Positions 12,112 to 35,578 of a stretch of DNA of 64,000 nt are shown here, piece by piece. Numbering within the stretch: the first letter of the stretch is position 1; the number at the start of each line of letters is the position of its first letter. The translations under genes were made by a program, and so were the position numbers. Origin of the DNA: Escherichia coli (GTDB lineage: Bacteria; Pseudomonadota; Gammaproteobacteria; Enterobacterales; Enterobacteriaceae); NCBI RefSeq assembly GCF_013315695.1, contig NZ_CP054353.1; one strand, written 5' to 3'. The notes below the pieces were generated by a model, which did not search any database, had not been told where the DNA came from, and worked only from the letters and a program-made list of their open reading frames with translations.

Positions 12112-13155
12112 ATGAGCGAGAACTCGATTCGTTTGACCCAATACAGCCACGGCGCTGGTTGCGGCTGTAAAATTTCCCCAAAAGTGTTGGAAACCATCCT
12201 GCACAGTGAGCAGGCGAAGTTTGTTGATCCGAATTTGCTTGTGGGTAATGAAACCCGCGACGATGCGGCGGTATACGATCTGGGCAATGGCACCAGCGTT
12301 ATCAGTACCACCGACTTCTTTATGCCGATCGTTGATAATCCTTTCGATTTTGGCCGCATTGCGGCGACTAACGCCATCAGCGATATCTTCGCAATGGGCG
12401 GCAAACCGATTATGGCGATTGCGATCCTCGGCTGGCCGATTAACAAACTTTCCCCGGAAATTGCCCGCGAAGTGACCGAAGGTGGACGCTATGCATGCCG
12501 TCAGGCGGGTATTGCGCTGGCTGGCGGTCACTCCATCGATGCGCCGGAGCCGATTTTTGGTCTGGCGGTAACGGGGATCGTACCGACCGAGCGGGTGAAG
12601 AAAAACAGTACCGCACAAGCCGGATGCAAACTGTTCCTGACGAAACCGCTGGGGATTGGCGTTCTTACCACGGCTGAGAAAAAATCACTGCTTAAACCAG
12701 AACATCAGGGACTGGCGACGGAAGTGATGTGCCGGATGAACATCGCAGGCGCGTCCTTTGCCAACATCGAAGGCGTAAAAGCGATGACCGACGTTACGGG
12801 TTTTGGTTTGCTGGGGCATTTAAGCGAAATGTGTCAGGGCGCAGGTGTGCAGGCGCGCGTCGACTATGACGCGATCCCGAAATTGCCTGGGGTTGAAGAG
12901 TACATTAAGTTGGGCGCAGTGCCTGGCGGCACCGAACGTAACTTTGCCAGCTACGGTCATCTGATGGGTGAAATGCCGCGTGAAGTGCGCGATCTGCTGT
13001 GCGATCCGCAAACTTCTGGCGGTTTGCTGCTGGCGGTCATGCCGGAAGCAGAAAATGAGGTCAAAGCTACAGCCGCCGAGTTTGGCATTGAACTGACGGC
13101 GATTGGCGAACTGGTGCCAGCGCGCGGCGGTCGTGCCATGGTTGAGATCCGTTAA
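12112..13155 (+). CDS. selD: selenide, water dikinase (selenophosphate synthetase)
   Basis: 347-aa ORF beginning [23 protein letters not shown] with the catalytic Cys17 motif. Confidence 0.95.
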
Positions 13156-13159
13156 TTCA

Positions 13160-15115
13160 ATGCGGTTGTTTATTGCCGAAAAACCGAGTCTGGCGCGCGC
13201 CATTGCTGATGTCCTGCCTAAACCGCACCGGAAAGGCGATGGCTTTATCGAGTGCGGTAATGGTCAGGTGGTGACCTGGTGTATCGGTCACCTGCTTGAG
13301 CAGGCGCAGCCAGACGCTTACGACAGCCGCTATGCGCGCTGGAATCTTGCGGATTTGCCAATTGTCCCGGAAAAGTGGCAATTACAGCCCCGACCCTCCG
13401 TGACTAAACAACTTAATGTCATCAAACGCTTCCTGCATGAAGCCAGCGAAATCGTTCACGCCGGAGACCCGGATCGCGAAGGGCAACTGCTGGTGGATGA
13501 AGTGCTGGACTACCTGCAACTGGCACCGGAAAAGCGCCAGCAGGTACAGCGTTGTTTGATAAACGACCTGAACCCGCAGGCGGTTGAGCGGGCGATCGAT
13601 CGTCTTCGCTCCAATAGCGAGTTTGTACCGCTGTGCGTTTCTGCACTGGCGCGAGCCCGAGCTGACTGGCTGTACGGCATCAATATGACCCGCGCTTACA
13701 CCATTCTCGGTCGCAATGCCGGTTATCAGGGCGTACTTTCCGTGGGACGCGTGCAGACGCCCGTACTCGGACTGGTGGTGCGCCGCGACGAAGAGATTGA
13801 AAACTTCGTGGCGAAAGACTTCTTTGAAGTCAAAGCACATATCGTGACACCTGCCGATGAGCGGTTTACCGCTATCTGGCAACCAAGCGAAGCGTGTGAA
13901 CCATACCAGGACGAAGAAGGGCGCTTGCTGCATCGTCCACTGGCGGAGCATGTGGTTAACCGCATCAGTGGTCAACCGGCTATTGTCACCAGCTATAACG
14001 ATAAACGGGAATCAGAATCCGCGCCGCTGCCTTTTTCGCTTTCGGCGTTGCAGATTGAAGCGGCAAAACGCTTTGGTCTGAGCGCGCAGAACGTGCTTGA
14101 TATCTGCCAGAAGCTGTACGAAACGCACAAGCTAATCACTTATCCGCGTTCCGATTGTCGCTATCTGCCAGAAGAGCATTTTGCCGGACGCCACGCAGTG
14201 ATGAATGCCATCAGCGTTCATGCACCGGGCTTGTTACCGCAGCCAGTGGTCGATCCAGATATACGCAACCGCTGTTGGGATGACAAAAAGGTCGATGCGC
14301 ACCACGCCATCATTCCGACCGCACGGAGTTCTGCGATTAACCTGACGGAGAACGAAGCGAAGGTCTATAACCTGATTGCCCGTCAGTACTTGATGCAGTT
14401 CTGCCCGGATGCGGTGTTCCGCAAGTGTGTTATCGAACTGGACATTGCCAAAGGCAAATTTGTCGCTAAAGCCCGTTTTCTTGCTGAAGCAGGCTGGCGC
14501 ACGCTGTTAGGCAGCAAAGAGCGCGATGAAGAAAACGACGGCATGCCGCTGCCTGTGGTGGCGAAAGGCGATGAATTGTTGTGCGAAAAAGGTGAAGTGG
14601 TAGAGCGGCAAACCCAGCCGCCGCGCCATTTTACCGATGCAACACTGCTTTCGGCGATGACCGGGATCGCACGCTTTGTGCAGGACAAAGATCTGAAAAA
14701 GATCCTTCGTGCGACCGATGGTCTGGGGACAGAAGCAACCCGTGCCGGGATTATTGAACTGTTGTTCAAGCGTGGTTTCCTGACCAAAAAAGGGCGCTAT
14801 ATCCACTCCACCGACGCCGGAAAAGCGCTATTCCATTCGCTGCCAGAAATGGCGACGCGACCGGACATGACCGCGCACTGGGAATCGGTGCTGACGCAAA
14901 TCAGTGAAAAGCAGTGTCGCTATCAGGACTTTATGCAGCCGCTGGTGGGGACATTGTACCAGTTGATTGATCAGGCAAAGCGCACGTCGGTAAGGCAGTT
15001 TCGGGGAATAATGGCTCCCGGCGGTGGAGAAGGGAAGAAAAAGGATTCGCCACGCAAGAGAGCGCCGAAAAAAAGCCCGCCATCAGAAGAGGCGGGCAAT
15101 GGAGTGATAATATAA
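13160..15115 (+). CDS. topB: DNA topoisomerase III
   Basis: ORF trimmed to [16 protein letters not shown] (TOPRIM start); type IA topoisomerase domains; lysine-rich C-terminus. Confidence 0.92.
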
Positions 15116-15152
15116 AGGTTCTTTCAACCATCTGATACTGAAGATTTTTATG

Positions 15153-15182
15153 GCCGGATAAGGCGTTTGCGCTGTATCCGGC
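15153..15182. repeat. REP (repetitive extragenic palindrome) element
   Basis: GCCGGATAAGGCG...TATCCGGC palindrome in the 76-bp spacer between convergent topB and gdhA. Confidence 0.6.
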
Positions 15183-15191
15183 ACAATTGTC

Positions 15192-16535
15192 TTAAATCAC
15201 GCCCTGGCTTAACATCGCATCCGCAACCTTCACAAAACCGGCAATGTTCGCGCCCTGCACGTAGTTGGTTTGATCACCTTCACCACCATGCTCAACACAG
15301 GCATGGTGGATATCCAGCATGATGTGATGCAAACGTGCGTCAACTTTCTCGGCTTTCCAGCCCAGGCGCGCAGCGTTTTGCGCCATTTCCAGGCCCGATG
15401 TTGCTACACCGCCAGCATTAGCCGCTTTACCCGGTGCAAACAGTACGCCTGCCTGCTGGAACAGTTCAGTCGCTTCGATGGTGGTCGGCATATTTGCCCC
15501 TTCGGCGACGGCTTTAACGCCATTGGCGATAAGCTGATGCGCGGCGTCAACATCCAGTTCGTTCTGGGTGGCGCAAGGCAGGGCGATATCAACCGGTACA
15601 GACCACGGCTGTTGGCCTTCGAGATAGACCAGACCAAATTCTTTGGCGTAATCTGCCACTCGACCATCGCGGCTGGCTTTGATTTCGATAAGACGTGCCA
15701 GTTTCTCTTTCGTGAATCCGCTTTCATCAACTACAGTGCCACTGGAGTCTGACGCAGTGATCACTCGAGCACCAAATTCCATCGCTTTTTCGATAGCGTA
15801 CTGGGCGACGTTGCCGGAGCCAGAAACGGAAACGCGCATTCCTTCAAAACCCATACCGTGGCGTTTTAGCATTGCTTCTGTGAAATAAACCAGACCGTAT
15901 CCGGTAGCTTCCGGGCGAATAAGACTGCCGCCAAATGAAAGGCCCTTACCGGTGAAGACGCAGGCGGTATTGTTGGAGAGCTTTTTCATCATCCCCGCCA
16001 TAAAGCCGACTTCACGACCACCAACCCCGATATCACCTGCCGGAACGTCAGTATCCGCGCCCAGGTGGCGATACAGTTCAGTCATCAGCGCCTGGCAAAA
16101 ACGCATCACTTCACCTTCGCTTTTTCCTTTCGGATCGAAATCGCTGCCGCCTTTACCACCGCCCATCGGCAGAGTAGTCAGGGCATTTTTGAAGGTTTGT
16201 TCGAAGCCGAGGAATTTGAGAATGGAAAGGTTAACTGACGGATGGAAGCGCATACCGCCTTTGTACGGGCCGATGGCAGAGCTGAACTGCACACGCCATG
16301 CACGGTTGACCTGTACCTGGTTGCGATCATCAACCCATACCACGCGAAACTGGATCACGCGCTCCGGTTCAACCAGACGCTCCAGTAATGACATCTGGCG
16401 ATATTTTGGATTTTGTTCAAGAAAAGGCCAGAGTGTGGTCATTACTTCACGAACGGCTTGCGCGAACTCGGTTTGATTCGGGTCGCGCTTTTGGACATGG
16501 TTGAGGAATGACTCCAGAGAATATGTCTGATCCAT
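15192..16535 (-). CDS. gdhA: NADP-specific glutamate dehydrogenase
   Basis: 447-aa ORF with Glu/Leu/Phe/Val dehydrogenase motif (GGGKGG) and Rossmann fold. Confidence 0.95.
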   Translation of the reverse strand: MDQTYSLESFLNHVQKRDPNQTEFAQAVREVMTTLWPFLEQNPKYRQMSLLERLVEPERVIQFRVVWVDDRNQVQVNRAWRVQFSSAIGPYKGGMRFHPSVNLSILKFLGFEQTFKNALTTLPMGGGKGGSDFDPKGKSEGEVMRFCQALMTELYRHLGADTDVPAGDIGVGGREVGFMAGMMKKLSNNTACVFTGKGLSFGGSLIRPEATGYGLVYFTEAMLKRHGMGFEGMRVSVSGSGNVAQYAIEKAMEFGARVITASDSSGTVVDESGFTKEKLARLIEIKASRDGRVADYAKEFGLVYLEGQQPWSVPVDIALPCATQNELDVDAAHQLIANGVKAVAEGANMPTTIEATELFQQAGVLFAPGKAANAGGVATSGLEMAQNAARLGWKAEKVDARLHHIMLDIHHACVEHGGEGDQTNYVQGANIAGFVKVADAMLSQGVI

Positions 16536-35481: not shown

Positions 35482-35578
35482 TGCTACGCCTGTCAGGCCT
35501 ATTCGACTCATGCAATATATTGAATTTGCATAGTTTTGTGGGGCGAATAAGGCGTTCACGCCGCATCCGGCGTGAACA
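35482..35578. repeat. BIME-like pair of REP elements
   Basis: Two REP-type palindromes (TACGCCTGTCAGGCCTA and GGCGTTCACGCCGCATCCGGCGTGAAC) in the spacer between cho and nadE. Confidence 0.55.

Follow-up and report, generated by a model that had tools for sequence, protein, structure and literature searches.

The topB–gdhA junction

The window analysed here is a stretch of 64,000 nucleotides of DNA from an ExPEC-type E. coli. It contains the convergent genes topB and gdhA, which are separated by exactly 76 bp, and its junction between the two genes is identical to that of ST131 genomes. The genes were identified from the listing of open reading frames, from the RefSeq annotation of a genome that is 100% identical to the window (NZ_OZ547117.1, isolate AF3, from a blood culture) and by tblastn. 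The features of the region are listed below (a dot marks a feature without strand), with the evidence for the smaller ones in brackets.

12112-13155: selD
13160-15115, + strand: topB, DNA topoisomerase III (651 aa), with its TAA stop codon at 15113-15115
14892-14951, + strand: near-invariant 60-nt block inside topB, encoding 20 aa (multi-haplotype alignment, sliding-window identity)
14952-15115, + strand: cassette-specific 3' end of topB, here in its Escherichia-native version (drop of identity to the other alleles)
15116-15191,.: unoccupied form of the topB–gdhA swap site (76-bp spacer)
15153-15182,.: single REP, or palindromic unit (inverted repeat, match to the consensus, fold)
15167-15170,.: TTGC, the 4-bp target duplicated by IS1397 in strain ETEC4071 (BLAST junctions, direct reading)
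15192-16535, - strand: gdhA, NADP-specific glutamate dehydrogenase (447 aa)
15201-15222, - strand: cluster of substitutions within the final ~10 codons of gdhA, where the segment unlike K-12 has its right-hand edge

The initial annotation had described convergent topB and gdhA genes 76 bp apart, with no ynjI between them and a REP at 15153-15182, and the open reading frames, the annotation and tblastn all confirm this description. It had also stated that K-12 carries a ynjI gene of about 1 kb between gdhA and topB. The statement is accurate: in MG1655, ynjI (b1762, 1,041 bp, 1843831-1844871) lies between gdhA (b1761, 1842371-1843714) and topB (b1763, 1844999-1846960), and it is not the case that gdhA and topB are less than 100 bp apart in K-12. 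The gene order of the K-12 derivative EC600 matches that of MG1655. The gdhA gene of EC600 (L001, 3002-4345) is annotated as two coding sequences of 1,203 and 123 nt, which points either to a mutation (nonsense or frameshift) or to an error in the sequencing.

The window and K-12 thus agree in the flanking genes and in their convergent orientation, but the window has neither the 127-bp spacer with a terminator and a promoter, nor the 1,041-bp ynjI, nor the 116-bp BIME of K-12, and it differs from K-12 in the tail of TopB and in a patch at the 3' end of gdhA.

The REP element of the spacer

The REP is extragenic and lies inside the 76-bp spacer, between the stop codons of topB and gdhA. Its arms of 13 nt each, GCCGGATAAGGCG (15153-15165) and CGCTGTATCCGGC (15170-15182), flank a TTTG loop (15166-15169) and are 85% complementary, two stem positions being mismatched or wobble pairs. 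It agrees with the canonical E. coli core GCCGGATAAGGCGTTTACGCCGCATCCGGC at 27 of 30 positions. The 64-kb window contains two matches to the REP core, compared to none in 100 dinucleotide-preserving shuffles. The other REP-like site, GGCGAATAAGGCGTTCACGCCGCATCCGGC at 35542-35571, deviates from the consensus at three positions; the window as a whole is poor in REPs. The predicted folding energy of the RNA is -20.6 kcal/mol on the + strand (z -3.85) and -18.7 kcal/mol on the - strand (z -4.81), and none of 200 shuffles reaches this stability.

The element resembles the enterobacterial REP/PU sequences in that it is a GC-rich imperfect palindrome of about 30 nt, extragenic and located between convergent genes, which forms a hairpin on both strands and is a target of IS1397. 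It differs from REP/PU and BIMEs in that it is a single unit and in that GTAGGCC has become TATGGCC. The orthologous REPs of E. albertii and of the Escherichia genome L004 have GTAGGCC as 5' tail. In the sequence, the TATGGCC tail fits a mutated copy of a REP, and not a different element. The mutation in GTAG and the weakening of two pairs in the stem make the REP look like a decaying copy. A BIME has at least two alternating REPs; the spacer of the window has one, whereas K-12, E. albertii and others have BIME-like pairs of REPs at this site. A search of Rfam gave a score of 32.8 bits for naRNA4, the family of nucleoid-associated RNAs derived from REP325, which is below the gathering score of 59.5 and reflects the generic similarity between REPs; a match to ncS54 is due to chance.

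The REP can be ruled out as an intrinsic terminator, because no U-tract follows the stem on either strand, and no terminator-like site was found on either strand between positions 14900 and 15400. The roles that have been published for REPs are the stabilisation of mRNA, the termination or attenuation of transcription, and protein binding (PMC3333891). The hairpin would be a 3' structure shared by the two convergent transcripts and stable in each of them. From the established biology of REPs, its most likely role would be that of a barrier to 3' exonucleases, which would stabilise the topB and gdhA mRNAs, and of a weak transcriptional block. The stem ends 9 nt from the stop codon of gdhA, and the distance is the same for the proximal REP of K-12. 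Liang, Rudd and Deutscher (2015) reportedly found that a REP reduces translation, by ribosome stalling, when at most about 15 nt separate it from the stop codon.

In the porcine strain ETEC4071, a copy of IS1397 (1,432 bp) is inserted in the loop of the REP (L003, 3556-4987). The target duplication, TTGC, and the ends of the element, TGAACTG...CAGTTCA, were read directly, and the insert is annotated as an IS1397-family transposase. Strain ETEC4069 is interrupted at the same position. Two secondary sources describe the insertion of IS1397 as specific to REPs (PMC1525189, PMC3333891), and the insertion in ETEC4071 is a natural example of this REP-specific transposition. Another kind of rearrangement is seen in Enterobacter sp. 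ENT03, whose topB–gdhA spacer (L055, 7936-8250) contains one REP followed by five tandem REP-containing units of ~50 nt, an array produced by local amplification of the REP.

Alternative alleles between topB and gdhA in E. coli

The alignment of positions 14900-15400 with K-12 shows the difference in ynjI, but the flanks are not collinear and near-identical up to the breakpoints: both the topB tail and the end of gdhA diverge. Identity to EC600 is ~96% in the body of topB and 98% in gdhA. Over the last ~165 nt of topB, identity to K-12 drops to 58-83% in windows of 60 nt, against 90-100% upstream, and BLAST gives 79% over the last ~190 nt of the gene. The comparison with an allele that carries an Hsp70 gene (described below) gives the same picture, with 46-82% in the tail and 90-100% upstream. 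In the sliding-window comparison, which was computed over 1.5 kb of topB, the identity of every pair of haplotypes falls sharply from the same point, at about position 14950 of the window. The 60-nt block which ends there (14892-14951) is almost invariant across the genera that were aligned and all the E. coli haplotypes, and the divergence starts directly after it. Judged from these alignments, the block is the probable anchor of the left crossover. Each cassette has its own C-terminal tail of TopB, because the shared left breakpoint lies inside topB, near position 14952; in the window, the segment 14952-15115 encodes a Lys/Arg-rich tail.

On the other side, gdhA is 96% identical to that of K-12 from the stop codon inward, with six substitutions clustered at 15201-15222. 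The C-terminus of GdhA is MLSQGVI* in the window and MLAQGVI* in K-12; the Hsp70-type allele has the version of the window. In the alignment of 14900-15400, neither the REP nor the 37 nt on its left have a counterpart in K-12. The divergence of the topB tail together with the patch of substitutions at the end of gdhA implies that a whole segment was exchanged, and that the difference is not a clean indel. In K-12 this segment consists of four parts: the TopB tail; an AT-rich spacer of 127 bp, which contains a canonical terminator (a hairpin and T8) downstream of topB and then the promoter region of ynjI; ynjI itself; and, between ynjI and gdhA, a BIME of 116 bp made of two REPs whose sequence types are not that of the REP in the window.

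These alignments bear on a simple deletion as the explanation of the empty site: the K-12 arrangement would once have been present and ynjI lost, perhaps by a REP-mediated event of which the REP at the junction would be the remnant. A ynjI gene does occur in about 65% of E. coli genomes, REPs are known substrates of recombination (PMC1525189) and K-12 has REPs adjoining gdhA. However, a deletion would leave K-12-like flanks, and neither flank is K-12-like, as seen from the 58-83% identity of the topB tail in 60-nt windows and the cluster of substitutions in gdhA; the 37 nt left of the REP are also without a K-12 counterpart, and the REP is of another type than both K-12 REPs and is orthologous to those of E. 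albertii and L004. The junction alignments largely refute the deletion, which is now highly improbable. The initial annotation had suggested that the REP could mark the junction. It does not: it lies inside the exchanged segment, E. albertii and a cryptic-clade Escherichia have orthologous REPs at this position, and K-12 has a BIME of its own. It is a bona fide REP and a normal resident of the spacer, and not the scar of a loss of ynjI.

The states of the junction were counted in 5,426 complete RefSeq genomes of E. coli, with the following result.

Empty site with REP (junction 14950-15215): 1,531 genomes (28%), 1,425 of them at 99% identity or at least that; O25b:H4-ST131, ZH193, APEC O18
ynjI cassette (K-12 type): about 3,506 genomes (65%); K-12, 55989, O157:H7, O55:H7, O111, O121, O145
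Hsp70 and J/Sel1 cassette: about 355 genomes (6.5%); CFT073, Nissle, ABU 83972

About 33 of the 5,426 genomes are left unclassified. The presence/absence polymorphism proposed by the initial annotation is therefore genuine and common, with 1,531 genomes of the window type, but it is not limited to two states, considering the Hsp70 and J/Sel1 allele and a rare allele of ynjI, and it is not a clean indel. The distribution over phylogroups was surveyed from the strains named in the match tables, a sample which phylogroups D and F are outside of; in IAI39, the topB–gdhA region lies elsewhere than near 1.96-2.01 Mb. The haplotypes move between genetic backgrounds: a porcine ETEC has a junction of the window type, and two different alleles occur in the sampled B2 strains.

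The rare allele of ynjI (L084-L087, 4001-5032) is 68% identical to that of K-12 at the amino acid level and 71% at the nucleotide level, lies in K-12-like flanks and is found in 13 genomes at a query coverage of at least 80%. It is a mosaic: codons 1-45 are identical to K-12, and the rest of the gene, up to the stop codon, is 40-78% identical. The spacers on both sides are 97-99% identical, so that a sharp boundary of the mosaic lies inside the gene. Strain HH97 was considered as a partial deletion of ynjI and rejected, since its 544-bp spacer (L092, 2499-3042) is ridden with G/T homopolymers and only loosely ynjI-like; it is probably an assembly artefact.

The Hsp70 cassette (L093, 9335-13396; L094; and CFT073, L099, 37614-42124) encodes an Hsp70-family protein of 566 aa, which is 43% identical to HscC, and a protein of ~645 aa with a J domain and Sel1 repeats. 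Some variants have two J proteins, and the cassettes of the CFT073 type also encode a hypothetical protein of 266 aa. The latter was rejected as a DUF1266 relative of YnjI: it belongs to no Pfam family and gives only a local match of 49 aa at 33% identity. No REP adjoins gdhA in the Hsp70 cassette. An IS1A insertion interrupts ydjA, the second gene upstream of topB, in strain GF54 (L094, 9043-10371). In Klebsiella spallanzanii (L022, 11839-13934), a gene for an Hsp70 that is 77% identical to that of the cassette, followed by a J protein gene, is located ~4 kb downstream of topB; this locus may be a relative of the donor of the cassette.

The cargos found between topB and gdhA (DUF1266, or Hsp70 with J/Sel1) belong to the same families as the proteins of the K-12 hscC-djlC-ybeU-ybeT-djlB-ybeR-ybeQ cluster (MG1655 675570-683393), which encodes the DUF1266 proteins YbeR and YbeU, the J proteins DjlB and DjlC, the Sel1 proteins YbeQ and YbeT, and the Hsp70 HscC. 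Whereas the cluster has them side by side, DUF1266 and Hsp70/J genes exclude each other as alleles at the topB–gdhA site. YnjI also differs by a membrane segment at its N-terminus, and BLASTP shows no similarity between it and YbeR or YbeU. The window carries neither kind of cargo. One reading of the resemblance is that the junction is a dedicated cassette-exchange site with a single functional theme (YnjI, or an HscC-like Hsp70 with J/Sel1), where the extreme divergence of the alleles would result from diversifying or conflict-driven selection, for example on an uncharacterised Hsp70-based defence or stress system, and where the tail of TopB, exchanged along with the cargo, is perhaps functionally coupled to it and more than a passive consequence of the place of recombination. 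If this were true, the empty allele of the window would be the null state of that system. A search with PADLOC gave no match for YnjI and only marginal matches for the cassette Hsp70 and the J/Sel1 protein (E about 1e-4), which give no support to a known defence system. We consider the reading of a dedicated exchange site very doubtful.

Origin of the empty site and of ynjI

Polarity was addressed with an outgroup scan in which TopB was searched in one genome per GTDB species and the best 80 loci were taken, a sample that E. fergusonii, E. marmotae and E. ruysiae lie outside of. The two genes are directly convergent, with spacers of 3-454 bp, in 54 of the 61 listed outgroup genomes where both are complete. 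This direct arrangement is found in E. albertii, a cryptic-clade Escherichia, Salmonella, many Citrobacter, Enterobacter, Kosakonia, Lelliottia and Raoultella, and many of the short spacers contain one to five REPs. None of the 80 matches listed has ynjI, and two Pseudocitrobacter genomes are among the outgroups that do not carry it.

The tails of TopB have different affinities. Among the complete TopB reading frames that were compared, the tail of the window is closest, at 81.9%, to that of L004, a genome labelled E. coli which is 92-94% identical to the window, the distance of a cryptic clade. It also aligns closely with that of E. albertii (...GGTAATGGAGCGATAATATAA in the window and ...GGCAATGGAGTGATAATATAA in E. 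albertii), and the two share the end ...AATGGAG(C/T)GATAATATAA. In E. albertii, it is the REP nearest to gdhA that aligns with the REP of the window and its left flank; the REP of L004 aligns with them as well. In E. albertii NBRC 107761 (L005, ~6150), an in-frame TAG shortens TopB to 624 aa, and homology to the tail of the window type continues beyond it. The tail of K-12 is closest to that of a Pseudocitrobacter MAG (L019), with 82.2% identity overall, 34 of the last 36 nt and all of the last 20 aa being identical. The Hsp70-type tail resembles those of Enterobacter and Kluyvera. A near-identical donor was not found for any of the cassettes, the best match of a tail being about 82% at the nucleotide level, and the phylogenetic signal of the tails is weak because they are short (~165 nt) and of low complexity.

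The ynjI gene of K-12, which encodes a DUF1266 protein, has a GC content of 41%, compared to 53-55% in the flanking genes. BglJ-RcsB activates its expression, and mutation of hns and stpA raises it (PMC3950696). With its AT-rich composition and partial repression by H-NS/StpA, ynjI looks acquired. Homologues of YnjI are few, with 8 clusters among 5.8 billion proteins. For three homologues outside E. coli the context was readable, and each of them is located between topB and gdhA, with 58-80% amino acid identity. One (L088, 4001-5032) is on a Pseudocitrobacter-like contig from the Hadza gut, whose flanks are ~80% identical to E. coli and whose ynjI is 80% identical at the nucleotide level; the two others (L097, 355-1389, and L098, 174-1205) are on short contigs with a gdhA ~82% identical to that of E. 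coli. A terminator with a hairpin and a T-run recurs upstream of ynjI in K-12, L097 and L098, and in L097 the inner stem differs from that of K-12 with its pairing apparently kept, as judged by eye.

The presence of ynjI homologues at the same site in at least three non-Escherichia contigs means that ynjI could be older than the E. coli alleles suggest, already at the site in the common ancestor of Escherichia and Pseudocitrobacter-like genera, the window having inherited an old loss. The terminator hairpin shared by K-12, L097 and L098 agrees with such a history. It would, however, require many independent clean losses, because the outgroups, including two Pseudocitrobacter, are without ynjI: as seen above, no match listed carries the gene and most outgroups join topB and gdhA directly. 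The small number of homologue clusters and the low GC content, which argues against a long residence, make an ancient ynjI decidedly unlikely. Repeated transfer of ynjI between genera by means of the same homology arms is possible.

A second history places ynjI in the ancestor of E. coli, and supposes that B2 lineages such as ST131 and ST95 received the empty haplotype by recombination from another Escherichia species, which overwrote ynjI. The resemblance of the window tail to those of L004 and E. albertii would be expected from such an import, and haplotypes do cross backgrounds, as in the porcine ETEC and the two alleles of the sampled B2 strains. But an identity of ~82% to L004 is roughly proportionate, for a fast-evolving tail, to flanks at 92-94%, and vertical descent fits this value better than a recent import. 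Moreover, it is the K-12 tail that has an affinity outside the genus, and the profile of ynjI, AT-rich and xenogeneically silenced, is that of acquired DNA. An import of the empty haplotype is therefore unlikely.

The empty site is probably ancestral and ynjI imported, because the outgroups join the two genes directly, because of the affinities of the tail and of the REP, and because of the low GC content and the regulation of ynjI. The outgroups, the tails and the GC content thus most likely reverse the direction of the initial annotation, where the state of the window could be taken as a loss: ynjI was gained. In the ancestor of Escherichia, as in most of the Enterobacteriaceae sampled, topB and gdhA would have abutted across a short spacer containing REPs, and the window would have kept this arrangement, with the native tail of TopB and one slightly decayed REP. 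In other lineages of E. coli, the final ~165 nt of topB and everything from there up to the end of gdhA would have been replaced by foreign DNA through homologous recombination, the left crossover falling, as we infer, in the invariant block of topB. In the K-12 type, the imported DNA would have comprised a TopB tail like that of Pseudocitrobacter, followed by an intrinsic terminator, a promoter, the AT-rich ynjI and a BIME; in the CFT073/Nissle type, it would have comprised a tail like those of Enterobacter and Kluyvera together with genes for an HscC-like Hsp70 and a J/Sel1 protein.

The mutS-rpoS intergenic region and other integration hot spots of E. coli are polymorphic replacement regions bounded by conserved genes. 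The topB–gdhA junction is similar to these regions: unrelated alternative cassettes occupy one position, the breakpoints lie in conserved flanks, the cassettes are divergent and their distribution over lineages is patchy. It differs from them in the very small size of its cassettes (0 to 6 kb), which have no integrase, tRNA or mobile-element signature, and in its left breakpoint, which lies inside the gene of an essential-type enzyme, so that each allele alters the C-terminus of TopB. The polymorphism makes the site an ordinary replacement region for accessory genes, and public genomes already carry annotations of every state.

The consequences for biology at large are small, given that ynjI belongs to the accessory genes, that REPs are textbook elements and that the states of the junction are annotated in thousands of genomes. 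For E. coli itself, K-12 is not the reference state at this site, and the empty site is most likely the ancestral one. Comparisons of topB between strains should be expected to show a C-terminal tail that is linked to the cassette and looks non-homologous. The three-state junction is also a convenient marker of ExPEC lineages, since the sampled ST131 and APEC O18 genomes have the empty site and CFT073, Nissle and ABU 83972 have Hsp70/J. Finally, topB is without a canonical terminator in the haplotype of the window, and 9 nt separate the end of gdhA from the REP hairpin, which could affect the formation of the 3' ends and the expression of both genes.
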